Source: Octopus sinensis
Lineage: Eukaryota
Length of the DNA: 26,913 nucleotides
Assembly: GCF_006345805.1 (NCBI RefSeq)
Contig: NW_021835631.1
Location: 1-26,913 of the forward strand
Reading direction: 5' to 3'
Position 1 is the first letter of the stretch, and each line of letters begins with the position of its first letter. The notes under the pieces are model-generated. The model did no database searches and was not told the origin of the DNA. It saw only the letters and a program-made list of their open reading frames with translations. Positions 1,415 through 25,821 of this stretch are shown here, piece after piece. Position numbers and translations under genes: made by a program.

Positions 1415-1536
1415 TAAGAGAAAGACAGACAGAGAGAGCGAGAGAGTTTTTGCTACGTCAAATATCTCCGATCATTGTTTATCGATCGAAAGCATTTCTC
1501 CTACCCATTCAGTTCTAATAATGGTTTACCGATTTT

Positions 1537-2235
1537 GGTTCCAGGTCAGCAGTTTTGAGGGAAGGGGAAGGGCTTTAGTCGATTATATCGATCCTAGTGC
1601 CCAGTTGGTACTATATTTTATCGATCCTGAAAGAGCCCAGCAGAGATACCGCTAAGCATTTTGTCCAACTTTCTAACGATTCTGCCGGCTATCAACTTTA
1701 ATAATTTTTCCCCTCAAGGCACAAAGCCTGAAATATTGTTTGAGGGGAATAGTCGATTGCATTGATGCCAGTGCTCAATTGGAACTTATTTTATCGGCCG
1801 CAAAAGGACAAAAAACAAAGTCGACCTCGGTGGAATTTGAACTCAACATAAGGACAGACAAAATGGCGCTAAGCATTTCGCTGGGCGTGCTAACGATTCT
1901 ACCATCTCACCGTGCTAAGCCGTCTTTCTTATTTTGACCTGAGGCCAGAAGTTTTGAAAGGAGAGTATTGACGATTCCATCGACTCCAGTTCTTGATTGA
2001 TTTTTATTTAATCGAGCGTAACAGTATTTGAACTCAGAGCGTAAAGAACTAGCAAAAATAGCGCTAAAGATTTTGTCCGGCGCAATAACGATTTTGTTGC
2101 CTTTGTTTGTGATATAGGCACAAGGGCAGTCATTTTGAGGGGAGGGGTAATCAATAGTTGTTTCGAATTTTGGAATAATGCTAGTAATTTTCGGACGATG
2201 GATGGTCAATTTTATCGGCCTCAATGCTCGGCTGT
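1537..2235 (-). mobile_element. Cluster of 3-4 degenerate tRNA-derived SINE (family A) copies
   Basis: Repeated matches to the 19390-19597 copy (GAATTTGAACTC, GCTAAGCATTT, CTAACGATTCT) at about 1537-1695, 1705-1912, 1938-2102, plus a partial copy at 2117-2235. Confidence 0.8.
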
Positions 2236-2460
2236 TCTTTCACAAGAAGCTTACGTTTTGCTTCACATCACTCGCCGCACGTATTTTCTGTCTGCGTTGT
2301 CCTGTTGCGAGTGATTTCTGGTAATCTGCGTGACAAGTGCTATGAGCTTATCATTGGTGGTCCCTGGAAAACACGAAGGTAATTTTCCGTTGGCTTTCTT
2401 CGAGAGTTTCTTTTTCGAAGACACCTTGTCGGTGAGATCGAGACAACTTTGTCACATTTA

Positions 2461-2963
2461 TTTGGGAATTTAGGGCATAAAGAACGGGAACAAATCGTTA
2501 AATCATTTTGTCTAACGCTCAGTCAACTTCGCCAATCAATCACCTCTAAGTGTTTCTTTATTTCATCGATCCCAGAAGGATAAAAGGTAAAGCTGACTTC
2601 AAGAGAATTTGAACTCAGAACGTAAAAAGGCGGAACAAATACTGCAAAGCATTTTGTCTAACGCTCTAACAACGTCGTAATCATCTTTCATGGACTGACA
2701 CCTTATTTTGCCAACCCATGGAAAATTAAATATAAAGTTGACCTTAGTGGGATTTGAACACAGAATGTAAAAAAGCTGGGACAAATAATTTACAGGGCTT
2801 TGTCCAACGCTCTAACAATTCCGCCATTCGAGTGTCATAGACAGGTTCTTTATGTTATCGACCCTGGGAAGAGGGAAAGTAAAGTTGACCTAGGATGAAT
2901 TTGAACTCAGAGAAAAAGTCCGAAACAATGTCTGGCATTTTGTCTGATACTCTGCCAATTCGA
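2461..2963 (-). repeat. Head-to-tail array of four ~145-bp SINE-A 5' modules
   Basis: Reverse-complement B-box GAATTTGAAC-like motif at 2466 (degenerate), 2605, 2750, 2897, each followed by TTTGTCYAACGCTC-like sequence. Confidence 0.75.
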
Positions 2964-3389
2964 CTCATCGTGTACCAATATGAATCTGGGTCTGAGAATT
3001 TCAGAAAATGGCGAATTGGCAGAGATATAGGGAGGACTCGGCCACAGTTATTGCAGTCTTAGACTTTGTTTCTTTCTAGACTAGATTCAAACACAACAGG
3101 TGACAAGTTTGTTCTTCGTCCGTTCGAGATACCTGTAATATACTGAGGATCACTCGATGTCTGTTCTATATCCTTTCAACTACTGATGACTCATTTTTAT
3201 GAGTCAATACTGAATTTCACTGAAACAAGAGTCATGGATCAATGGGTAGGCTTTTAGCCACATAGACACCGCATAACGATTTCAATCCTCACATAAAGCA
3301 ATTTTGTTCACTTTGGTTATGATATTCGGAATGACATGAAAATCCCAGCATTTCATTTTTCATTCTGGCCAGCATAATTAAATACCTGA

Positions 3390-3559
3390 ATAGGCGCAGG
3401 AGTGGATCTGTGGTAAGTAGCTTGCTTACGAACCATATGGTTCCGGGTTCAATCCCACTGCGTGGCACATTGGGCAAGTGTCTTCAACTATAGCCTCGGG
3501 CCGACCAAAGCCTTGTGAGTGGATTTGGTAAACGGAAATTGAAAATAATAATAATAATA
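3390..3559 (+). mobile_element. tRNA-derived SINE family B, short form with (AAT)n tail and 16-bp TSD
   Basis: Head GGCGCAGGAGTGG, B-box GGTTCAATCCC, CORE-like TTGGGCAAGTGTCTT; perfect ATAATTAAATACCTGA at 3374-3389 and 3560-3575. Confidence 0.9.
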
Positions 3560-4228: not shown

Positions 4229-4512
4229 GGAAATGCAGCAGCAGAATCGTTGGCATGCCGGACAAAATGCTTCGTGACGTTTCGTCTGCTTTTATGGTCT
4301 CTTATGCTCTGAGTTCAAATTCTGCCGAAGTCGACTTTGCCTTTCATCCTTTCAGGGTCGATAAAATAAGAACCAGTTAAACACTGGGGTTGATGAAATC
4401 GACTTAATCCGTTTGTCTGTCCTTGTTTGTCCTCTGTGTTTAGCCCCTTGTTGGTAGTAAAGAAATAGGTATTTCGTCTGCCGCTACGTTCTGAGTTCAA
4501 ATTCCGCCGAGG
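4229..4512 (+). mobile_element. SINE family A, long-tailed copy fused to the partial body of a second copy
   Basis: GCAGAATCG A-box remnant; B-box GAGTTCAAAT at 4311 and again at 4493; tail GCCCCTTGTTGGTAGTAAAGAAATA joined to GGTATTTCGTCTG. Confidence 0.88.
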
Positions 4513-6163: not shown

Positions 6164-6606
6164 CATCATCATCATCATCATCATCATCATCATGTTATTG
6201 ATCACTCCATTATTGATGAAAGCGATCTGGAGGCAACAGTCTAAGTTTCGAACCCGTCTACTAACAGACCCCCAATCCCCATGCCTCTGCCTTCCATAAC
6301 ACATCAGTGACACACATAAACATCGGTCAATGGCATTGTTGGAGTTTCTTATTCCCGGGGCAGTGTCTAAGTCCCCTCCCGTGAAAACATAACATAATAC
6401 ATAGCCTCATGCCGCCACTACAATTTGCCGTCGAGGGCGGGTAACCCTCCTCAGCCTCTTTTACCTACTTTTGCACTCCCGACTACAACTACACCTTGAT
6501 GGCAAAGCTACGAAAGTCTGACATCACCGATGTATATAGGAAATATACAGTTAAGAATAATATGAAGTCGCAAGTCAACACGGAAAAGAAAAACCTTCCA
6601 AATAAC

Positions 6607-6692
6607 CCTTTCTGTTCTAGGCACAAAGCCTGGAATTCGGGTGGGAGCGTTATTCGATTAGATCGACCCCAGTGTTCAACTGGTACTTATTT
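6607..6692 (-). mobile_element. SINE family A 3' fragment
   Basis: CTAGGCACAAAGCC...GATCGACCCCAGTGTTCAACTGGTACTTATTT. Confidence 0.75.
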
Positions 6693-6850
6693 AGAAAATT
6701 ACTATTTTTAAATCTCACAACGAGACATATTCAGCAACAGTACTTTGGAGTAAAGATTGTTTGCCAACATAACATGGCAGTCCTGGTTTAGGACGAATGT
6801 TGCTGTAATTTAGCCCCAGGAGATATCGTCTCCAGCTGGCTATATTACAC

Positions 6851-6996
6851 TATATTTTCGAACAAGGGAATCTAGCACCCCCACTCAGCTCAAAACAATA
6901 TCTGCGTATCGCGAAGCGAAATAACATGGAAATCGCGATACAAAGATAGTGTTTTGAGCTGAGTGGGGATGCTAGATTCCCTTGTTCGAAGATATA
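6851..6996. mobile_element. Palindromic MITE-like element with 64-bp arms
   Basis: 6851-6914 is the reverse complement of 6933-6996 with 5 mismatches; 18-nt spacer; TATA at both ends. Confidence 0.8.
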
Positions 6997-7022: not shown

Positions 7023-7100
<78 letters not shown>

Positions 7101-7103
<3 letters not shown>

Positions 7104-7223
7104 GCATGGTTCCGGGTTCAGTGCCACTGCGTGGCACCTTGGGCAAGTGTCTTTTACTGTAGCATCGGATCAACCTAAACCTTGTCCATGGATTTGGTAG
7201 ACGGAAACTGAAAGAAGTCCATC

Positions 7224-7274
<51 letters not shown>

Positions 7275-7485
7275 TGTGTGTGTTTGTGTGTCTGTATTTG
7301 TCCCCCTACCATCGCTTGACAACCGATGGTGGCGTGTCAACGTCCCCGTAACTTAGCGGTTCGGTAAAAGAGCCCGATATATTAAGTACTAGGCTTACAA
7401 AGAATAAGTCGTGCGGTCAATTTGTTCGACTAAAGGCGGCGCTCCAGCATGGCCGTAGTCAAATGACTGAAACATAGAAGAAAAC
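7101..7485 (+). mobile_element. SINE family B, long form with internal (TA)n(GA)n; 5' end missing
   Basis: Matches the 3390 copy, then continues GAAGTCCATCG-microsatellite-GCTTGACAACCGATG...GCTCCAGCATGGCCG...TGACTGAAAC. Confidence 0.88.
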
Positions 7486-7998
7486 ATATATATATATATA
7501 TATATATGGGTGCGTTTGCCCTGCGTGCAACTGTAAGAGAGAGAAAATAAAGCATAATAGACAAGAATATTTTGAAAACTTGTTTGAAGTGAAGTCTGTT
7601 AATTATATAAAGGAAAACAAACCTTAAAAAAACTAAGCAAATAATACAAAAACATGTCTGCTTGGTTATTTCCGTCTACGATGACTTCTCCTCCCGCTGT
7701 AAAGAAGAAAAAAAAAAACTCAAAACAAACAAAAACAGACAAATACCCAAGCAACACAACTATGTGTTTGTGTCACCTGGTACCACAAATCCGGATTACT
7801 TTCGCAATCCGACACGTTTTCTAATTATTTGGTTTAAAATTCACTTTTAGATAAGTACGTGGATTGGTATTTTGGAAGGAAACATTTTAAAAGAAGACTT
7901 CTCCCTTTTTTTTAAAAAAAAACAAACTCTCACTGCTTTGTATCTCTCCTCTTTACCTCTCTCCGCTTTGTTACTCTCTCAGTGTCAGGCTCTTCATT

Positions 7999-9220: not shown

Positions 9221-9250
9221 TAATCTCACGTATCTCCTCTTATTAATATA

Positions 9251-10089
9251 GAGGTGACTGAAGCGCACACAGCCTTGAAACGTTGTGCCGAAGACACCGT
9301 TGAAAAGCCAAGTTCAGTAATAAGTGAAGTATTAACAAATGCCTCTCGGGTGACACTTGGATCATTGCCAGATGCTTCAGACACGAGGAAAACTATAAAA
9401 CGCAAAAGGGAACCTTAAGCGCCCCACCTCCGTGCCCTGTAGATCTCCAAGAGTACCAGTAAAAAATTTACATTTCTGTGGAAGGAAGAGAAAATTTCCT
9501 GATCGGTGATCAATTGAAATAAAAAGATGTTTTTTCTAATTAGCGCAAAATATGCACAAAAAGATAGCAGCCATGGGTTACACTTCTGTGTACAACAACG
9601 ATGCTACCTTTGCACTAAAAACCAGGATGATATTAAGTTTAGCATTGGTTCCTGTTCCAGATATTGGTACGTATATTGATACCCTCTCTGGGGATATACC
9701 TGAAGAACTTCGAAGACACCTATATTGGAAGTCCAAATCGACGTGGAAATAGTAGAAGACCTTCACTCTTCCCTCATGAAATGTGGAATTTTTAGGAAAA
9801 GACGTCACTCGAGGAAGTCCGGACAAATAACCATGCTGGAGCAGCAAACAGAAGACTCCAAACAGAGCTGGGAATGGAGCACCCCACAATTTGGAGAGTC
9901 ATAAATGGACTACATAAGGGGCAAAGAAACGGAGGGGCATTTTTTGAGCAACTGATTGGCGGTCATCCTCCTCACTCTAAACTGAAGAACTATGTGAAGG
10001 CAGATGATAGAATTCTGCATATTGTTTCTTCTTTTTCAGAACGATCTCCCACAAAATATTAGAAGGGATTTGCATAAAACTTCCAGTAA
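9251..10089 (+). pseudogene. MULE transposase pseudogene (frameshifts, stops, internal deletion)
   Basis: Fragments LKRCAEDTVEKPSSVISE..GSLP..RKTIKRKR; AQNMHKKI..GY..VYNND..F..RMILSLALVP; TNNHA..ANRRLQTELGMEHPTIW..Q..FEQLIGG..K..Y..D.RI..IV, typical of animal MULE transposases. Confidence 0.78.
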
Positions 10090-10325
10090 ATTTCTCATTT
10101 ACATTTTAGCCTTAAATCATATATAAATAGTTTCTCAATTATTTTTGTTCGAATTTTAAAACTTATGTCATGTAATAAATTACTATTTTTATAAATACCT
10201 GATAATGTTATAAAACGAATAAATCATTTATTAATCAATTTTCTTGGTGTGGAGTTGTCTTCGTCTTGAGTCGGCGGCGTTGAGTCGGCGGCGTTAAGTT
10301 GGCGGTGTTGAGTTGTCCTGCACCC
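9251..10325 (+). mobile_element. Degenerate Mutator-like (MULE) DNA transposon with right terminus retained
   Basis: Transposase remnants, then AT-rich 3' region and a terminus with 14-bp repeats TGAGTCGGCGGCGT ending in GCACCC. Confidence 0.75.
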
Positions 10326-10470: not shown

Positions 10471-11498
10471 TAAACAAGGATAGAAATTCAAATAAATATC
10501 AGTGAAAAGTGTGTGTCTGTAACAAATATTTTTCTACCCGAATATGCTATCCCGGATACAGCAGAACACATGCATGATCTAACCTCTTCTGATTCGTTTT
10601 TCGTTTTTCTCTTCTCCTCTTATTTTCTATTCAGTTTTATTCCCATCCGCATCTTTCTTCAGCTGCGAGTCCTTCATCAGATTGCCGGTCGAACTATCAT
10701 ATTTCTGTTCAGATTCGTGAATGCTGAGAGAAGAGCGGCCCATAATCAGTATTTCCTTGTTCTCCGTTTTAGACCAATAAAATTGCGAGAAAAATTTAGA
10801 GCACAAAAATTTGTTGGCATTTTTCATCCGTTAACTAATCAAATACTGTAAATAATTGTAGAGGAATTTTAAAATTCTATCCTTTCACAGGATTGGTATT
10901 AAATTAAAAAAAAACTAAAAAAAGTGACACCAGCAAAAACAAAAAAAAAATATTGCTACTTGACTCATTATGAAGGATATACACATATATGTGGTCGCGC
11001 GTGCGCGTGTATGCATTTGTGTGTGCGCGTGTGCGCGTTAAGTCGCTCTTGACTGCTACTTGTAACATGCATCGTTGCATGGTCGGGCCATCGGTGACAA
11101 ACACAGTAAAGGGTTCTTGGTGAGTAGGGCGCAAGTTGGTCTGTCAAAGGGCGGCTGTACTCAGAAGAGTCAACGGTCATCATATATATATATACATATA
11201 TATATATACATATATATATGTGTTCTTTTATTCTTTTATTTGTTCAGTCATTTAGCTGCGGCCATGCTGGAGCACCGCCTGTTGACGAACAAATCGACCC
11301 CAGGACTTATTCTTTGTAAGCCTTATTCTATCGGCCTCTTTGCCGAACCTCTAAGTTACTAGGACGTAAACACACCAACATCGGTTGTCAGCCGATGGTG
11401 CGGGGACGAGCACAGACACACAAATACATTCATAAATACATACATACTACATGCATATATATATAATATATATAATACCGGAGTAAACACATAAAAAG

Positions 11499-11783: not shown

Positions 11784-12779
11784 CATGACGAGCTTCTTTC
11801 AGTTTCCGTCTACCAAATCTATTCACAAGGCTTTGGTCGGCCCGAGGCTATAATAGAAGACACCTGGGGTGCCACGCAGTGGGACTGAAACCGGAACCAT
11901 GTGGTTGGGAAGCAAGCTTCTTACCACACAGTCTACACAACGCCTACACAACACACACACACCACACACACACACACACACACACGCACATATATATATG
12001 GCGACTAAAGGATTTAGGCTAACAGATAACAGCTGTGAGTCCAACATACCCAGGTAGGCTAAATGCTTACCTGGGTATTAAATGAGAAATTTCTTGCGTG
12101 CATAGACTCACATGCACATACACCCACACATATACACACACATTCAGAGACACGACAGAAGTAAACAGACACCCTAATAATCGTTGAAATTTATTTAAAT
12201 CTGAAATTATACATTCAAGTTATTTATTAATTATTATAATGTGAATATCTAAAATTTGGTAGACATGCCCTTCGCATTTTTCAATGCAAAGACCCTATTA
12301 TATAAATATAACTGCGTGTGTATCGTTGGTGATTTTCTTCCGGAGCCCGCATCGAACTGATTGGCCACAGCCGGACTCAGCGTGACCCATCTTATTCTCC
12401 CATGTGATGTCTTTGGTCATCGTCGACAACGACGGACGGACATTATCGTTATTATATATCTATGAATGAATTCATGAGTGAATATATGTATGTAAGTATG
12501 TATGTATGCATGTATGCATGTAAATGTGTGTATACAGGTACATATATACATACATATATACATAATACAGTAGTAGTAGTAGTAGCAGCAGCAGCAGTAT
12601 GGTGACATGCGCTGTAACAGCGCGTCGCCATATGTCAGTGATTCCCTAGACACCCCAGGCAACAATTCTCCAACCCATGTGTCATTTTGGATAGACGTTA
12701 CTAGTGAGGATTTTATGAGGCTGGAGTTCAAATCCTATCTTATCCCTTTAAATATATTTATTTATATTTAGGGCATTAC

Positions 12780-13870: not shown

Positions 13871-14352
13871 TTGTATGTAACTAATACCATCCTTAAGCCA
13901 CCCACTCATACTTAATGCTTCATTATAACAAGCAGCAATTTTGTTAAAGGAAGTTATATCAGATTATATACACTGTAAAAATGCACAATATTTGGAACCA
14001 AATTATTCGAAACTGCAAAAGGAAAATTAGAATCTATATTCATGTAGCGTAACTTATTGGGTTTCGTTAGTGGATAACATTTATTCAGCGGATGTTTATT
14101 TCGTATATAACTGTATTTACTTTAATATCTCTTATTGACCGGTGATCAGGGGAATAAAACCCAGAGGGAGATTTGTGAAGCTTCGGCTTCAAATAAAATA
14201 TCATATTAACTTCCTATTATTAATGAGCAAAGACATTTTTCCTATAGATTATTTGTATCGATGACCATTTCACTCCATTATCTGTATATGTGTGCATGTA
14301 TGTGTGTGTGTGTGTGTGTGTGAGTGAGAGAGAGAGAGAGAGGGAGAGAGAG

Positions 14353-14385
<33 letters not shown>

Positions 14386-14389
<4 letters not shown>

Positions 14390-15250
14390 AGTAGCACACA
14401 AACAGCAGATTTAGTTGGAATAATACTTAATGAGATTGACTCAACTCTGCAGTAATTAAGGTTTCGTGGATGTTGGACACGTCCACTTCATTTGATGTTC
14501 GGAGATTCTATCAAACTGCTATTACACAACCCACACTCCTACATCTCTCTCTCTGTCCATCTATCTATCTATTTATCTGTCTGTCTGTCAGACAAGGTAC
14601 ACATAATGGTCTTTACATATTCCTTTATTCTTGTAAATTGGACTTACAGCTGTTCCTGATAAGCATTATAGGTTCGTACATCGATCTGTTTACTCAGTCA
14701 GTCGGCTGAGAAGAATTGAACGACCCAAAAAATCTAATGCTAGCTTCGTCAGTGTCGGCGTCTTAAAATATAGCATTAACGTTTAGTTTGATTGCTAGAT
14801 ATTATGTGTGTGTTGTGTGTGTGTGTGTGTGTGCGAAGTAGCACACAAACAGCAGATTTAGTTGGAATAATACTTAATGAGATTGACTCAACTCTGCAGT
14901 AATTAAGGTTTCGTGATGTTGGACACGTCCACTTCATTTGATGTTCGGAGATTCTATCAAACTGCTATTACACAACCACACTCCTACATCTCTCTCTCTG
15001 TCCATCTATCTATCTATTTATCTGTCTGTCTGTCAGACAAGGTACACATAATGGTCTTTACATATTCCTTTATTCTTGTAAATTGGACTTACAGCTGTTC
15101 CTGATAAGCATTATAGGTTCGTACATCGATCTGTTTACTCAGTCAGTCGGCTGAGAAGAATTGAACGACCCAAAAAATCTAATGCTAGCTTCGTCAGTGT
15201 CGGCGTCTTAAAATATAGCATTAACGTTTAGTTTGATTGCTAGATATTAT
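14386..15250. repeat. Tandem duplication, period 445-447 bp, bounded by (GT)n
   Basis: 14386-14805 matches 14833-15250 except for two single-base homopolymer indels. Confidence 0.95.
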
Positions 15251-15810
15251 GTGTGTGTTTGTGTGTGTGTGTGCGTGTGTGTGTGTGCGTGTATGGGTGA
15301 GTGTGTGATCTTTGTGTATTTATGTGTGTATTTATGTGTGCTGCGGAACAAAGGGCAAGTTCCTGGTCAGCGTCTTGTTCCGCAACACACATTTGAAACA
15401 AATTCTTCAATTCACTTCCTTTGCACTATTAATGTATTTGTAGTCGGCCATGAATATCACACTTCTTACTTTTTCTCCCCTAAAATATAAGCATTTTTTG
15501 TGTCTTATCAAAAGAGATTGATATCATCTATAGCGTTGCAGCTATATATGTTTCCGGTTCCGGTGTGCCACAGATACAGTGTGATCACTATTTCCCGTTC
15601 ATTTTACTTACGTTGTTAATGTCGTTGAATGGCAGACATCTTCACTTTTCCTTACTTTGATTAGATTCATAAAAAATAAATCAATACTACTGGTAGAGTC
15701 CATATCCGTAAATGACCTATTTGAAAGGGTTTCAGCCCTGCACTTTAACTTAAGCAGATAATGGTCTCACCATTCAATAAATGTCCTAATATTATTTTAA
15801 GAAAATGAAA

Positions 15811-16677: not shown

Positions 16678-16980
16678 CACTGGTAGATTCGACTGGTCCC
16701 CTACCCGAAAATTTCAGGCCTTGTGTCGATAATAGAAAGGATGTTGTTTAAGGATGTTGAACGAACCACCCATGTTTCCAGAGGTGAATTATCCAAACCC
16801 CAAAGAATCCTTCTCAACACATGGCTATGATGCTCCCCCACTACTTCTGCTCGTTATCAGAGATGCACATATCGTCAGCCCCTAAGGGACATGCTCAACT
16901 GGTTATGGTCAAACAACTGATAAGCAAATCTGTGGTATTGAGCAGAATATTTGCTGTAGCCCATCTTTTATACCAAGACA
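16678..16980 (+). mobile_element. SINE-A tail followed by a probable interspersed-repeat segment
   Basis: 16678-16740 matches the SINE-A short tail; 16750-16980 resembles a common octopus repeat from memory only. Confidence 0.4.
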
Positions 16981-18747: not shown

Positions 18748-19083
18748 CCTTCTTTACTACTCTAGGCATAAGGCCCAACATTTTTGGGGACCGGGAACCT
18801 GTCCTTTAGATCGACCCAGTATGTAACTGGTACTTAATTTATCGACCCACAAAACGATGAAAGCAAAGTCGACCTCGGCGGAATTTGAACTCAGAACGCA
18901 AAGATAGACGAAATACCTATTTCTTTACTACCCACAAGGGGCTAAACACAGAGAGGACAAACAAGGACAGACAAATGGATTAAGTCGATTATATCAACTC
19001 CAGTGCGTAACTGGTACTTATTTAATCGACCCCGAAAGGATGAAAGGCAAAGTCAACCTCGGCGGAATTTGAACTCAGAACGT
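18748..19083 (-). mobile_element. SINE family A composite: long-tailed copy joined to a short-tailed copy
   Basis: GAATTTGAACTCAGAAC at 18881 and 19065; junction GACGAAATACC|TATTTCTTTACTAC near 18917. Confidence 0.88.
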
Positions 19084-19285
19084 GTTTTCCGTCATACAAG
19101 TCGAGGTTTGCGGACCAAAATTTACAGCCAAAATGTGAAGTCGGCTTATACACCAAAACAGCTCTGGAGGACCAAAAATTCTATGTGAAATGCAGCAAGA
19201 TTTGGAAATATAGTGACGCCACTTGAACATTTACTTTGCATGTTTACACCAGAGACTATGTCGACTTTTATGTTGGAAAATACTG
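19081..19285. mobile_element. ~205-bp MITE with ~24-bp imperfect TIRs (pogo/Tc2-like)
   Basis: CGTGTTTTCCGTCATACAAGTCGA (19081-19104) versus the reverse complement of 19261-19285, CAGTATTTTCCAACATAAAAGTCGA; internal GTCGGCTTATAC repeat. Confidence 0.6.
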
Positions 19286-19389
19286 GTTATCTAATTCATA
19301 ACAACGTCGCAATATTTCATTTATTGTCCCAAAAGCACTGGATTTTTCTTAACAAGCACTTTGAGGCACACACAAAAAGTTGATCTATA

Positions 19390-19597
19390 TTCTTTTCTAC
19401 TCGAGGCCCGAAACTTTGGAGAGGGGACCAGCCGATTACATCGACCCCAGTACGCAACTGGTACTTAATTTATCAATCCCGAAAGGATGAGAGGCAAAGT
19501 CGACCTCGGAGGAATTTGAACTCAGAACGTAACGGCAGACGAAACACCGCTAAGCATTTCGCCCGGCGTGCTAACGATTCTGCCAGCTTCTCCGCTT
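19390..19597 (-). mobile_element. SINE family A, full-length short-tailed copy
   Basis: Minus strand: A-box TGGCAGAATCG, B-box GAGTTCAAATTCC, central GTCGACTTTGCCTCTCATCCTTTCGG..AAGTACCAG (Meta-domain-like, from memory), tail GAGTAGAAAAGA. Confidence 0.9.
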
Positions 19598-19829
19598 TAA
19601 AAAGTTAAATATGTATGGCCACAAATTGGAGAGGAGTTGTTTGAACGTGTTTGACCTGCTGTCGTCACACAAAAACTAGAGATACCAGTCTTAAAGTTAT
19701 GTCTCATTAAAATCAGTGACTAGCGATTTAACAACGCTCGAATAAATAAGAGTAGAAGAATGACACCAGAGTTGAAACACAATCTACTGTCAAACGATAA
19801 CTTGCTCTGCTTTAGGCTCCAGCGTTGCC

Positions 19830-20108: not shown

Positions 20109-20340
20109 TATTTCTTTACTACCCGCAAGGGGCTAAACACAGAGGGGACAAACAAGGACAGACAGACGGATTAAGTCGATTACATCAACTCCAGTGCGTA
20201 ACTGGTACTTAATTTATCGACCCCGAAAGGATGAGAGGCAAAGTCGACCTCGGCAGAATTTGAACTCAGAACATAATGGCAGACGAAATACCGCTAAGCA
20301 TTTCGCCCGGCGTGCTAACGTTTCGGCCAACACGCCGCTT
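20109..20340 (-). mobile_element. SINE family A, full-length long-tailed copy ending in (TA)n
   Basis: Complete head and body plus tail GCCCCTTGCGGGTAGTAAAGAAATA followed by TATATA. Confidence 0.9.
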
Positions 20341-21163
20341 TATATTACGTTATTATTCCCCTCGCCTTCGCTAAGGCAGAGGTATAGTTTTTATTATTCA
20401 TTTTGTTCGTGTGTACAATGATGTGCGTATTCACCATTATTTTATTTATTTTATTCAATTTTAGAAAATTTGAAGCATGTCTTCGATAATTCAGGAGCGT
20501 ATTGAACACATTATGTGCGTGACTTTAGGCCCACCTTGTATGTTTGTCTTCATGTTCTTCTGCAGGGGCGGCTGGACTCAGTGTTCACAAGTATAGGTAG
20601 GCACGCCCTAATGAACCAATATCTACATGTTCATTGAATTTTGATGAAGAATCATTCATGGCTCAACGGAGAGGACAGCGACTGTAGCAACACATTCTGG
20701 AGTTCTGAGAGCAAGATAAAGCAAGCAAGATTTTCTGGTTCTCTATTCCATCCGTCTCCATCTCTAGTCGTCTTAACTTAGTCTTGCCACTGGATTGAAG
20801 TTGGTTACGGACGAGAGAATTAGGTTGACAATGTGTCACTCTTCTTCACATTAAACAAATTCACCACATGACGACATGGTTCTCGTGGCTTCGACAGACA
20901 AACACGATTTCTCTTCATATCTGGTGCAAATATGAACTTTTCCTTAAACACGTAATGACGTAATTTTTATGTTTGATACACTTAAGTAGAGTTAATAAAT
21001 ATTTACAAGTTTATATAAGTAATTAATTTGACTTCCGCTATAAAGTTAGATTATATAGATTAAAGCCGTTTCACAGTTTAGGCTATCTGATGTCATCCAC
21101 AGCTTTGATATGTCACTGGATTTCCCTCAGGAATTCTGTAGTGAGTTTATAATGAACGAAAGG

Positions 21164-21693
21164 AACGGAAAATGGAGTTCACTAGAATCTTTATTCTTCA
21201 TAATGATAGTTTCAACCCATCTTGCGTCGGTCCCTTGTGGGTGGAATACAGTACGACTGGTTGTGTTGCACCCTCCGGCGCAGATGCATCTCGTCTTGTT
21301 TTAAAGAAAATTCTCCGTTTCGCTTGGCGTGTTGTCGTCGCCAGAAGGTTGTTGGCTATAATGACACGGGATGGATACAATTTCTGGGTTATAACCGGTT
21401 AATGAGTCTGGCTATGAACTCTAGCCAGACCTATTAACTGATTGTAACCAGTAAATTGTATCTACCTTCTATCAGTATAGCCAACAACCTACTGCCGGCA
21501 ACAACCTGCCAAGCGAAACCGAGTATATTTAGCGAGGTAGCTTCTTTAAAACTAGACACCAGATGAGATGCATCTGCGCCGGAGGATGCAATACAACCAG
21601 TTGTACGGTATCCCACCCACAAGGGACCAATGCAAGATGGGTCGAAACGATCATTGTGAAGAATAAAGATTCTCGTGAACTCCGTTTTCCGTT
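21164..21693. repeat. Long imperfect inverted repeat (arms 251 and 272 bp, 7-nt spacer)
   Basis: 21164-21414 pairs with 21422-21693; centre GTCTGGCTA-TGAACTC-TAGCCAGAC; 7- and 14-bp indels plus scattered substitutions. Confidence 0.93.
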
Positions 21694-21943: not shown

Positions 21944-22130
21944 GTTTGTGTGTGTGTCTGTTCCCCCACTGTCGTTTGACAACCGATGTTGGTGCGTTTA
22001 CGTTGACAGAATAAGTACTAGGCTTACGAAGAATAAGTCCTGGGGTAGATTTGTTCGACTAATGGCGGTGCTCCAGCGTGGCCGCTGTGAAATGACTGAA
22101 TCATGGAAAAGAATGAAAGAACAAAAGAAT
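21944..22130 (+). mobile_element. SINE family B 3' half
   Basis: TTGACAACCGATGTTGG...GAATAAGTCCTGGGG...GGCGGTGCTCCAGC...AATGACTGAA. Confidence 0.82.
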
Positions 22131-22492: not shown

Positions 22493-22790
<298 letters not shown>

Positions 22791-22791
22791 A

Positions 22792-25345
22792 GCGATTAGG
22801 CACAGCAAAGCACTAGCCATAGATAGAAATAGAGTAGAGGGTGAGCTAGTTAAGAAGCTAGAAGAGGCAATTAGAAGCGGCATCGCATCCGACGTTTTGG
22901 CGGCGAGGTTGGCCCTCGACCAACACTTCAACGCCAAACACGAAGGATGTGCTGTCAGAGCTAGGATGCGTGCTCTAAGGAACGAAGGTGTTGGAGCCGC
23001 GAGAGAGGCCCGGGTGGCAGAGGCGCAACAGGGCAAACAAAGCCACCATTCGGTCCCTGGTAGATGAACAGGGGCGCGAATTGCTCGAGCCAAGTAAAAT
23101 GTGTGAGGCCTTTCAGCAGCATTTTGCCCGACTGTTCGGAACGAGTGGAGGGCAAGAACGTAGGGTGGACTTCAGTGCCTACCTACATAGCCTACCACGA
23201 CTCTCGATAAGAAAGGCAGGGTGCTGCGAAGGTGCCATCACGGCGGCGGAAGTGCAGGAAGCGATGGCAGAATGCTCGAGGGACAAATCACCGGGTTTGG
23301 ATGGTCTACCCTACGAGCTTTACAATTGTATGCCAGACTTGTTTGGAGATCTCTTGGCGGCGGTGTACTGCAACTCGCAGCAAAACGGGAGCATTCCTGG
23401 TTTTGTGAGCCGAGGAGCCGTAACACTGCTGAAGAAAGATCTAAACAAGGGAAATGTAATAGATAACTTTAGGCCCATCACTCTGCTTAATGCAGACTTG
23501 AAAATTTTGGCCAAGTGGCTAGCCAAGAGGTTGGCGCTTGTCATCGAGAAACTGGTCGACAAGGCGCAAACATGCGCCGTGCCAGGCCGGACCATCCATG
23601 ACAACCTCCACCTGATGCGCTACATCATAGACAGAGTAGTTAACGAACCTGGCATGGGTGGGGCGCTGATCAATTTGGATCAATCGAAAGCTTTCGATAG
23701 GGTGGACCATCGATACTTGGAGGCGGTCCTCGGAGCGGCTGGCTTCGGTCCCGTCTTCCGCGGCTGGATAGCCGCCTTGTACAGAGGCATCCGTTCGGTA
23801 ATTCGCGTGAATGGACATCTATCGAGACCCTTCGACATCGCACGTTCGGTCCGTCAGGGATGCCCCCTCTCGTCGCTTCTATACGTATTGACTCTCGAGC
23901 CATTATTGCGGAAGCTGGCAACCTGAGAGGCACCCGCGAGAACTGGGATGCGGGACGAGCGTGTCTGCATATGCGGACGACGTCACCGTCATAGTGTCTA
24001 GCCACGAGCACATCGAGCCAGGTGGCGAGACACTGAAAAACTACGAAGCGGTGACAGAGCGAAAATCAACCGGAAAAGTCAGTGGGCTTGCGACTAGGCA
24101 CCTGGAGAAGCAAGCCCATGCCGTCCACCAGCGCCTCCGTCGTGGGACGCTGACCGACGGCCGGGTTGAGTTGCTCGGGGTCTGGTTTGGTCGGACCTCC
24201 AAGTGGAGAAGAACTGGAACGAGATAACGAGTAGGGGGGTCACTCTCGCCCGGCAATGGGCCGAGAGAAACTGTCCCTAAAGGTCGGGCGGAGGTGGCGG
24301 AACACGTACATCGCGTCCGTCATCTACTACCGCCTGACCGTCGTACCTTGTCCGACGACCCTACCATCACCAAACTACAACGCATTCTCTTTCGCTTCTT
24401 GTGGAAAGGATGCGTCCCGATGGTCAGGCGATCCATTTGCTGTCAACACCCTTTAAAAGGAGGGCTGGGCATGCTGTGGTTGATGATGCGCAGACACGCG
24501 CTGAGACTGCGACATCTCTGGCTCATGTAGACGACGGTGAACAGGTGGGTCGCCGTTTGTGAGGCACGCTTTCCCGCAGCTCGTCTCCATGACCGACTGC
24601 AGTCGTGGATCAAAAAGAGGCCGAGGAAGGGCGAATGGCACCGCGAGTGTCGCGTCGCCCTCAAGCAACTCTGCCGTCCTGGGTCGACTTTTGAGTGACT
24701 TCAACACAACCAAGCATTCTATAGGGGTTTAGTGGAGGGGAGGTACGACGACGAGCTCGGGGCGAACCTGGACGTCGACGAGGAGTACCTGACTCGCCTG
24801 TTCAGGACGACTTTCGGACCAGGGCCCATGGACAACTTCCAGAGATCCCTGGCCTGGCAGTGCTACCGAAAGCGCTACCCGTTGGGATAAGCTCTACAGA
24901 CACGGCTCGAGAAACACGGGGCCGACCTGCCGAGATGCGTCAGAGCGACGAAACCGTTTTCTGCACGCACTCGTGCAGTGTCCAACAATTTCCGACCTGT
25001 GGGCTTATGTCGAACAACTGCTGTCACGTGTGGGACGAGTCGGTTTATCACTGAGTCTATCGTCATATTGTCACGCCTCCTTCCTTCAAACGGGAAGGAA
25101 GAGCTATTTCATCATCCTTGTGGCTATGGCGAAAGAATGTATCTGGTGGACGCGTCTGAAAGAGGATTGAGACAAACACTTTCCTCTCGGTCAATCTTCT
25201 CATCAACTTCTTCAAGTACCACTTGAAAAGGAAAGTGAGAGTAGAGAGGCAAGTTTTGTCTAGCGAATGTTTTAAAAAAAGATGGGTGAATGTAGCAAGA
25301 ATGGCACGTATGAATGACGAAGCCACCTTGAGCATGATCCTATGA
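22792..25345 (+). pseudogene. LINE ORF2 remnant (endonuclease lost, multiple frameshifts)
   Basis: Open frame from the 5' junction (..EGCAVRAR..), RT motifs, YADD at 23970-23981, LLGVWFG, KGGLGM, frameshifted CPRC..ET.LHALVQCP at 24928-24984, stop at 25343-25345. Confidence 0.88.
22988..23926 (+). CDS. Reverse transcriptase domain fragment of LINE ORF2 (not a standalone gene)
   Basis: KSPGLDG, FRPITLLNADLKILAK, GRTIHDNL, NLDQSKAFDRV, VRQGCPLS..LYVL.LEPL. Confidence 0.8.
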   Translation: MLEPRERPGWQRRNRANKATIRSLVDEQGRELLEPSKMCEAFQQHFARLFGTSGGQERRVDFSAYLHSLPRLSIRKAGCCEGAITAAEVQEAMAECSRDKSPGLDGLPYELYNCMPDLFGDLLAAVYCNSQQNGSIPGFVSRGAVTLLKKDLNKGNVIDNFRPITLLNADLKILAKWLAKRLALVIEKLVDKAQTCAVPGRTIHDNLHLMRYIIDRVVNEPGMGGALINLDQSKAFDRVDHRYLEAVLGAAGFGPVFRGWIAALYRGIRSVIRVNGHLSRPFDIARSVRQGCPLSSLLYVLTLEPLLRKLAT

Positions 25346-25705
25346 ACCCAGAATTGAAACAGAGAGTTGCTTATTCGCAAAAAAAAAAAGAAATATAACA
25401 TGTGACTCCATTGACCGAGGTTACCGTGGTCTTTTCCGTAGGCTTTTCTTTCCACGGGTAACCTCACCTGTCCTCCCCTTTCCACTTCATATTGACATTT
25501 CTGTGATAACGATCCCTATTGATCAATTTTTTTTTTCCGCTCCCCCTTTTTTTTTAACCCCCCTTTTTTTTGTCCTCTTTCTCTCCTTTTACGATCCCTT
25601 TTGATCGAAACTCCCCCTTCCTTTTTTTTTTAAAACCTTCAAAAGAAAAGCTCTACCTTGTAATTTGTTCTATCTGTGTGCGCCCCTGTGTGGCTAATAA
25701 AGACA

Positions 25706-25762
<57 letters not shown>

Positions 25763-25821
25763 CTATCTATCTATCTATCTATCTACCACATCTACCTATC
25801 AATCTACCCTATTAGCTATCG

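Follow-up and report, generated by a model that had tools for sequence, protein, structure and literature searches.

One stretch of the genome of Octopus sinensis (contig NW_021835631.1, positions 1 to 26,913 of the forward strand; the whole 26,913 nt is called the window here) contains a long interspersed element (LINE) and many copies of a short interspersed element (SINE), and three of the SINE copies end in a segment that matches the end of the LINE. The LINE (22791..25707, plus strand) is a 5'-truncated, decayed element of L1/Tx1 type without poly(A), delimited by its junctions and by tblastn matches to relatives that span 22792-25342 in several frames. Its 5' cut falls inside open reading frame 2 (ORF2), before the endonuclease. 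The ORF2 remnant (22792..25345) comprises the linker, the reverse transcriptase (RT) and the C-terminal zinc region, with several frameshifts and a stop at 25343-25345; the open piece 22979-23926 matches RVT_1 at E=1.6e-20. Behind it lies a pyrimidine-rich, high-copy 3' untranslated region (UTR) of 362 nt (25346..25707, plus), identified with contigs from public sequencing runs. The terminal segment of this UTR (25656..25707, plus) holds a weak GCC/GGC hairpin, AATAAA and the end of the element, and is the part in common with the long SINE tail. On the 5' side the flank is a (TATC)n microsatellite with a TC-rich stretch (22493..22790), on the 3' side again (TATC)n (25708..25785), in phase with the first, as read from sequence and junctions on the plus strand; that is, this one copy sits in phase inside a repeat that makes up 3% of the window.

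The SINE is short, dispersed and non-coding: one body of about 170 nt, whole copies of about 220-240 nt, and 16 merged segments that account for 8% of the window. A-box-like and B-box-like motifs stand about 50 nt apart in two copies, the strict B-box pattern being unmatched. Neither ARAGORN nor Rfam found a transfer RNA (tRNA) match in the SINE head, and the Rfam matches in the window were sub-threshold microsatellite matches to microRNA models only. The body may be Nin-like. It carries two kinds of tail. The long tail is found on three copies: 4241..4467 (plus; tail 4421-4467, B-box-like motif 4311-4322), 20109..20345 (minus; full length, then (TA)n) and 18918..19081 (minus), whose tail, 18966-18918, is the best match to the LINE end. 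This last copy has no head; unrelated sequence (19082-19150) that may be a DNA-transposon end, by its looks, replaces it. Directly after two of the long tails come further SINE pieces that begin at SINE position 54, one a fragment (4468..4512, plus), the other a short-tailed copy (18760..18917, minus). The short tail, on at least eight segments, consists of a C run, an A run and, last, a 5-nt loop closed by a GGC/GCC stem. Besides the copy just named it is seen on 19385..19605 (minus; full length, A-box-like motif 19585-19575, B-box-like motif 19523-19512, tail hairpin damaged), which is 89% identical to a long-tailed copy over 170 nt; on 1700..1915 (minus); on the 3' part of a copy at 6605..6692 (minus); and at 16690..16745 (plus). 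Elsewhere, at 1520-2970 (minus), at least seven old SINE pieces in the same orientation are stacked, possibly because new copies kept inserting in or next to older ones. Another SINE family (or two that are joined), with internal TA/TG microsatellites, occurs on both strands at 3390-3545, 7100-7490, 11230-11400, 11790-11930 and 21950-22110.

The match between the LINE end and the long SINE tail is real. All three long tails stop on the same base as the LINE. In global alignment of 25656-25707 with the tails, 41 of 53 columns are identical for 18966-18918 (minus; 77%), 38 of 52 for 4421-4467 (plus) and 39 of 53 for 20157-20109 (minus); local alignment gives a score of 54 for the first, and 45 and 46 for the other two. 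For a query of the final 60 LINE nt, none of 3000 dinucleotide shuffles reached the score of any copy; for the entire 3' UTR, 0, 1 and 0 of 3000 did. The last 34 nt alone retain 27-28 identities in 35 columns (0 of 5000 shuffles for each copy), and with the AATAAA-like end removed 29-31 of 41 remain (0, 4 and 2 of 5000). The best non-SINE stretch among 5368 in the window scores 32 against the LINE end. When all 95 window positions ending in AATAAA or AGTAAA plus 6 nt were scored against the long tail, the first four places went to the three SINE tails and the end of the LINE, the LINE at 54 and the best unrelated position at 14.

The tail also appears to be a property of the LINE family. All four public runs, which bear the labels of four organisms, yielded between 4,327 and 24,784 contigs each on 25200-25760, and in every one depth stayed level across the start of the shared segment; no RNA dataset was listed as such for the LINE, which says nothing about its expression. 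In run X1, summed depth was 1.85M in the LINE-only bin 25637-25655 and 1.73M in the shared bin 25656-25674. Summed contig depth is not copy number; but as depth does not drop on entry to the shared segment, we read the tail as belonging to the LINE family and not just to this copy, and the level depth suggests that many LINE copies carry it. Part of what the first-pass annotation had said from the letters alone is borne out so far: its hand count of 41 identities in 53 columns, with co-terminal ends, was reproduced by alignment; the similarity stands against shuffling; and the segment, whose absence from other LINE copies would have told against the pairing, seems to be present in many of them.

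The short tail leads to a different set of LINEs. A scan of prokaryote genomes returned 46 loci, of which 44 came from a single record labelled as an uncultured bacterium (G001). In its contigs (L074-L114 and L117-L126), intact L1/Tx1-type LINEs are arrayed head to tail within DNA rich in AT and in microsatellites; such content marks them as animal DNA, and we take the record to be contaminated with host sequence, with many of its contigs animal. The array unit is about 6.4 kb, ORF2 is often open, and there are about ten UTR groups. A search of 697,861 bases with a profile of the short tail, built from eight window segments, produced 50 matches at E<10; every one is in a LINE-array locus and in sense orientation. 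Of these, 48 sit 569-692 nt behind a mapped ORF2 stop, some 25 nt short of the last AATAAA. Ten groups were made of the 48 UTRs of sufficient length, and every one of the ten representatives matches there (6.6-16.4 bits), five of them at 12.5 bits or more; among 1500 shuffles, 13 reach 6.5 bits, one reaches 10 and none 12.5.

Each tail keeps to its own clade. On the window LINE, two long tails reach scores of 54 and 45 (0 of 1000 shuffles), against 14-21 when they are set on five array ends. For five short tails the pattern is the opposite: 14-21 on the window LINE, and 31-42 on the ends of array elements L075 and L099 (0-2 of 1000 shuffles). The tail of copy 1700..1915 scores 36 and 32 against those two ends (0 of 1000), and the tail at 16690..16745, the best single match, reaches 42 against L075 (0 of 1000) and 21 against the window LINE (93 of 1000). 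Array units stop at AATAAA plus one or two bases without poly(A), the outer array end included; the window and array types alike end just past AATAAA. The SINE body was sought in the array contigs and not found there (best E 0.40 and 0.066). Of 119 related loci, 66 supplied 71 regions behind ORF2, on which the long tail scored at best only 33; a tail universal to Tx1 elements had been entertained and was dropped, the long tail being absent from distant relatives. A degenerate motif spanning both tails had no match in the metagenome, viral and prokaryote collections. A separate observation concerns the arrays themselves: a short motif after AATAAA, between units and at the outer end (L075:9028-9045; L120 near 18460, minus), looks like a carried or duplicated piece of target.

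The window LINE and the array elements are related. ORF2 of the former matches protein P0001 at 72% and a protein of Argonauta at 70%; its named relatives are from Argonauta (70% and 55%) and cuttlefish (49-50%). In an RT tree of 52 rows it groups with five proteins, both from Argonauta included (support 100/97); the sister clade, of 22 rows (99/96), unites cuttlefish proteins and array elements, and the octopod clade and this sister clade join at 100/100. An RT alignment search of viral contigs found no relatives. The intact sister element L075 has Exo_endo_phos, RVT_1 and a weak zf-RVT (below cut-off) in ORF2, and an ORF1 with zf-CCHC; zf-RVT is above cut-off in P0001 and P0004. Compared with solved structures, ORF2 of L075 matches human L1 ORF2p at E=4e-74 and R2 at E=1e-23, a coarse test of clade because few LINE clades have solved structures. 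The window LINE and its sister clade are assigned to the L1 group of LINEs (L1 plus Tx1). Membership of the Tx1 clade proper is plausible for the window LINE; the tree was built without any named Tx1 reference (Tx1, Keno, Kibi or Koshi), and no named Tx1 sequence is among the matches listed.

In the long tail, the loop sequence is identical to that of the short tail and stands on a CCC/GGG stem. The array LINE ends fold into two hairpins. In the second of these, two-sided changes are seen at two positions among ten ends (T-A, C-G and G-C at one; C-G, T-A and A-T at the other, in a hand-anchored count), which favours that hairpin as a real structure. A hairpin code common to SINE and LINE tails is suggested, as a lead rather than a result.

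The sites at which LINE and SINE end differ. None of the three long-tailed SINE copies is followed by (TATC)n: two are followed by the same position (54) of another SINE and one by (TA)n. The sister clade is found in head-to-tail arrays. The two SINE pieces downstream of long tails show 5 differences in 45 bases, grouped at a single variable place, as would suit two insertions into one SINE site; a dimeric ancestor is the alternative. Two observations on this site may be recorded for themselves: the SINE landing position is immediately 3' to the loop of a long hairpin within the SINE head (19530-19565, minus), and at the long-tail junctions (4462-4475 and 18910-18923) tail end and target together form a 6-bp inverted repeat.

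A SINE whose tail resembles that of a LINE relies on the reverse transcriptase of this partner. The account that we judge likely for the octopus family is that the SINE took a tail of about 50 bases from a poly(A)-less L1/Tx1-type LINE lineage, and that the tail serves for recognition by the RT of that lineage; these L1 relatives would then probably copy the SINE by way of a specific tail rather than poly(A). The SINE body would have swapped tails by template switching between two related LINE lineages. The ORF2 protein (ORF2p) may bind a particular 3' sequence, or else a small hairpin whose loop is of CUYGU type, in the manner of stringent L2 proteins, and the partner's endonuclease would set the choice of target, or the preferred landing sites, of the SINE. 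An identity of 77%, about 16 unmatched nt and differing flanks make a sister family of the window LINE the probable direct partner of the long tail. The first-pass annotation had proposed that the SINE swapped tails so as to use "this or a sister" family, and that LINE and SINE copies end in different surroundings. The surroundings are as it described them, and the swap gains support from the finding of two tails on one body, each matching a different LINE clade. Its choice of partner survives in part: the sister family is the likelier, and the window family itself fares poorly in view of flanks and identity. The comparison of 3' flanks that it had called for finds, within this window, no long-tailed SINE copy of three in (TATC)n.

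Several results weigh against this account. About 16 nt of the long SINE tail have no counterpart in the window LINE, and LINE-to-SINE identity is 77%, against 94% (61 of 65) between two SINE tails; the LINE and SINE flanks, as said, differ. The margin in the stretch control is modest, because low-complexity stretches of the window, the runners-up to the LINE, reach 43 against the tail of the SINE. In run X1 the depth is down to 0.32M in bin 25675-25693; the last bases were masked. The short tail matches LINEs of another animal, and matches less well on L093, L104 and L074 (0-228 of 1000 shuffles); the LINE 3' ends compared are those of L1-group loci only. Long and short tails have no significant sequence likeness to each other. 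The hairpins are open to objection too: eight tail pieces from the window are no more stable when folded than their shuffles (z -0.16 to +0.83), the stem is broken in one of the three long-tailed SINE copies, the window LINE has a 7-nt loop against the 5-nt loop of the SINE, the first array hairpin offers no covariation because it is invariant among 12 ends, and the second is absent from the short SINE tail.

These objections lend themselves to other explanations of the same match. The tail might be a relic, acquired long ago from this LINE lineage by a SINE that is now copied without need of it, through relaxed recognition or by another LINE. An identity of only 77% and the want of a folding signal in the window tails speak for this, and there is precedent in crocodilian SINEU, thought to use Tx1-Mar, where for SINEU-1 no shared 3' terminus was found in the accessible part of the report (PMC4494074). 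But poly(A) is missing from SINE and LINE, both of which end on the same base; each of two separate tails corresponds to a LINE 3' end; and array ends keep a structure with two-sided changes. A relic is unlikely, if worth keeping in mind. The transfer might instead have run the other way, this LINE family having captured the SINE tail by template switching or 3' transduction, in which case the match would be silent on SINE mobilisation. A SINE that makes up some 8% of the window would be easily captured, and distant relatives of the LINE do not have the tail. Yet the match stops before the SINE body; two alternative tails in two LINE clades would require two independent captures of the tail alone; and one of those clades resides in a host whose examined contigs show no match to the SINE body. 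We consider such a reversal improbable.

A narrower proposal, that the window LINE family is itself the direct partner and passed its preference for (TATC)n to the SINE, draws on its having the best tail match in the window and on the fact that a TA opens each of the three flank types once the end is placed two bases earlier. It runs up against the flanks themselves, of which two of three lie at one SINE position and the third is (TA)n, and against a tail identity that is low for a direct and recent partner; it seems very improbable. Chance, or convergence of two pyrimidine/TG-rich ends with a polyadenylation-like hexamer, has in its favour that the tail is TGTC-like in its 5' part and that low-complexity stretches can score as high as they do. 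Against it, significance survives removal of either the low-complexity part or the AATAAA part, and the 91 AATAAA-type window ends other than the LINE and the SINE tails score at most 14; this explanation is already largely refuted and has almost nothing left to commend it. Acquisition of the tail from a poly(A)-less LINE lineage, for recognition by its RT, remains the account to be preferred.

A more ambitious version can be put forward as a possibility that we rather doubt: coleoid Tx1/L1-type LINEs would use a poly(A)-independent 3' code, consisting of a CUYGU-loop hairpin with exchangeable stem beside AAUAAA; the dominant octopus SINE would have swapped tails between sister lineages that use it; and the partner of the long tail would insert at a fixed point of the SINE head, so that the SINE supplies its own landing sites.

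Stringent SINE/LINE pairing is already known; what appears to be new is a probable animal L1/Tx1-type partner without poly(A), together with two tails on one SINE. The comparisons that follow draw on the accessible portions of the papers cited. Among the 58 SINE/LINE pairs in Table 1 of PMC3747384 there is no Tx1 partner and no cephalopod, and L1 tails are reported on only three SINEs, from plants and an alga (PMC3472496). In these, ZmSINE2 and ZmSINE3 of maize and sorghum with LINE1-1_ZM, and Chlamydomonas SINEX-3_CR with L1-1_CR, an L1-group LINE likewise shares about 50 terminal nt with the SINE, and a hairpin with variable stem and conserved loop has been proposed, as here (PMC3472496, PMC3747384). 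The algal pair and most plant L1s end in poly(A), whereas the octopus case is from an animal, has no poly(A), is flanked by microsatellite or SINE sites and involves two tails from two sister clades. Crocodilian SINEU and Tx1-Mar offer another Tx1-type LINE inferred to mobilise a SINE, with fixed-site insertion inside another repeat; that pairing rests on common targets and snRNA heads, the octopus one on the 3' tail, with a head that may be tRNA-like (PMC4494074). The Tx1 families Kibi, in (TC)n, Koshi, in (TTC)n, and crocodilian elements in (TTCC)n/(TTTC)n sit in phase in their microsatellites as the window LINE does (PMC4494074); its repeat is (TATC)n, and it is a single copy, too few to show a preference.

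For mechanism, the model is given by the stringent L2 systems UnaSINE/UnaL2, ZfL2-1 and ZfL2-2. In L2 elements ORF2p binds a 3' stem-loop in which stems can be swapped and the loop is specific; the octopus SINE tails put one 5-nt loop on different stems. The L2 pairs were shown by assay, whereas the octopus pair is known from sequence and folding support in the window is weak (PMC4176376). In tail exchange the nearest parallel is with mollusc SINE superfamilies, in which one body bears several LINE-derived tails of 35-61 nt at 72-95% identity (PMC11481361, PMC4824008, PMC5804259); the octopus value, 77% over 53 nt, falls within the bivalve-pair range of 72-95% over 35-61 nt (PMC11481361). The mollusc partners named are CR1, CR1-Zenon, L2 and Nimb, and not L1/Tx1 as in the octopus (PMC11481361, PMC4824008). 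The LINE-derived regions given in SINEBase are only Bov-B, CR1 and two L2 (PMC3531059), and no Tx1-tailed SINE pair appears in the accessible text of PMC4758252, PMC5786205, PMC5804259 or PMC8967140. An annotation of O. vulgaris counts 13 recently active L1-Tx1 families, its accessible text not using the word 'partner'; SINEs make up 11.6% of that genome, and 893 of 900 recently active SINE families are unclassified (PMC13282606). No Tx1-tailed SINE was found in the literature searched; Repbase, Dfam, subscription papers and supplements (file 1 of PMC4824008 and the O. vulgaris repeat library) lay outside that search and may already note the match.

Other features of the window are of less concern here. 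Between (TG)n runs there is a near-exact tandem duplication of about 440 nt (14330-14810 and 14811-15260), real or an assembly repeat. Two inverted-repeat elements resembling miniature transposable elements were noticed by eye, at 6800-6990 (arms about 6810-6900 and 6920-6990) and 21200-21650 (arms about 21170-21300 and 21540-21690), as was a decayed coding-like stretch at 9250-10200 that may be the remnant of a DNA transposase.

Whether L1-group elements were ancestrally stringent and later relaxed is a standing question, on which the sequence evidence consists of the three SINE pairs of plants and an alga (PMC3472496, PMC3747384). An L1/Tx1-type lineage of animals whose ends lack poly(A) and match two SINE tails would extend stringency to the sister side of vertebrate L1, and matched and mismatched pairs of tail and ORF2p are on offer for tests of binding or mobilisation. 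If the 3' code outlined above were to hold, it would constitute an animal L1-group stringent system, with natural tail variants through which to ask how L1 relatives lost stringency. For the octopus itself, this LINE lineage is a candidate driver of the SINE expansion characteristic of octopus genomes.
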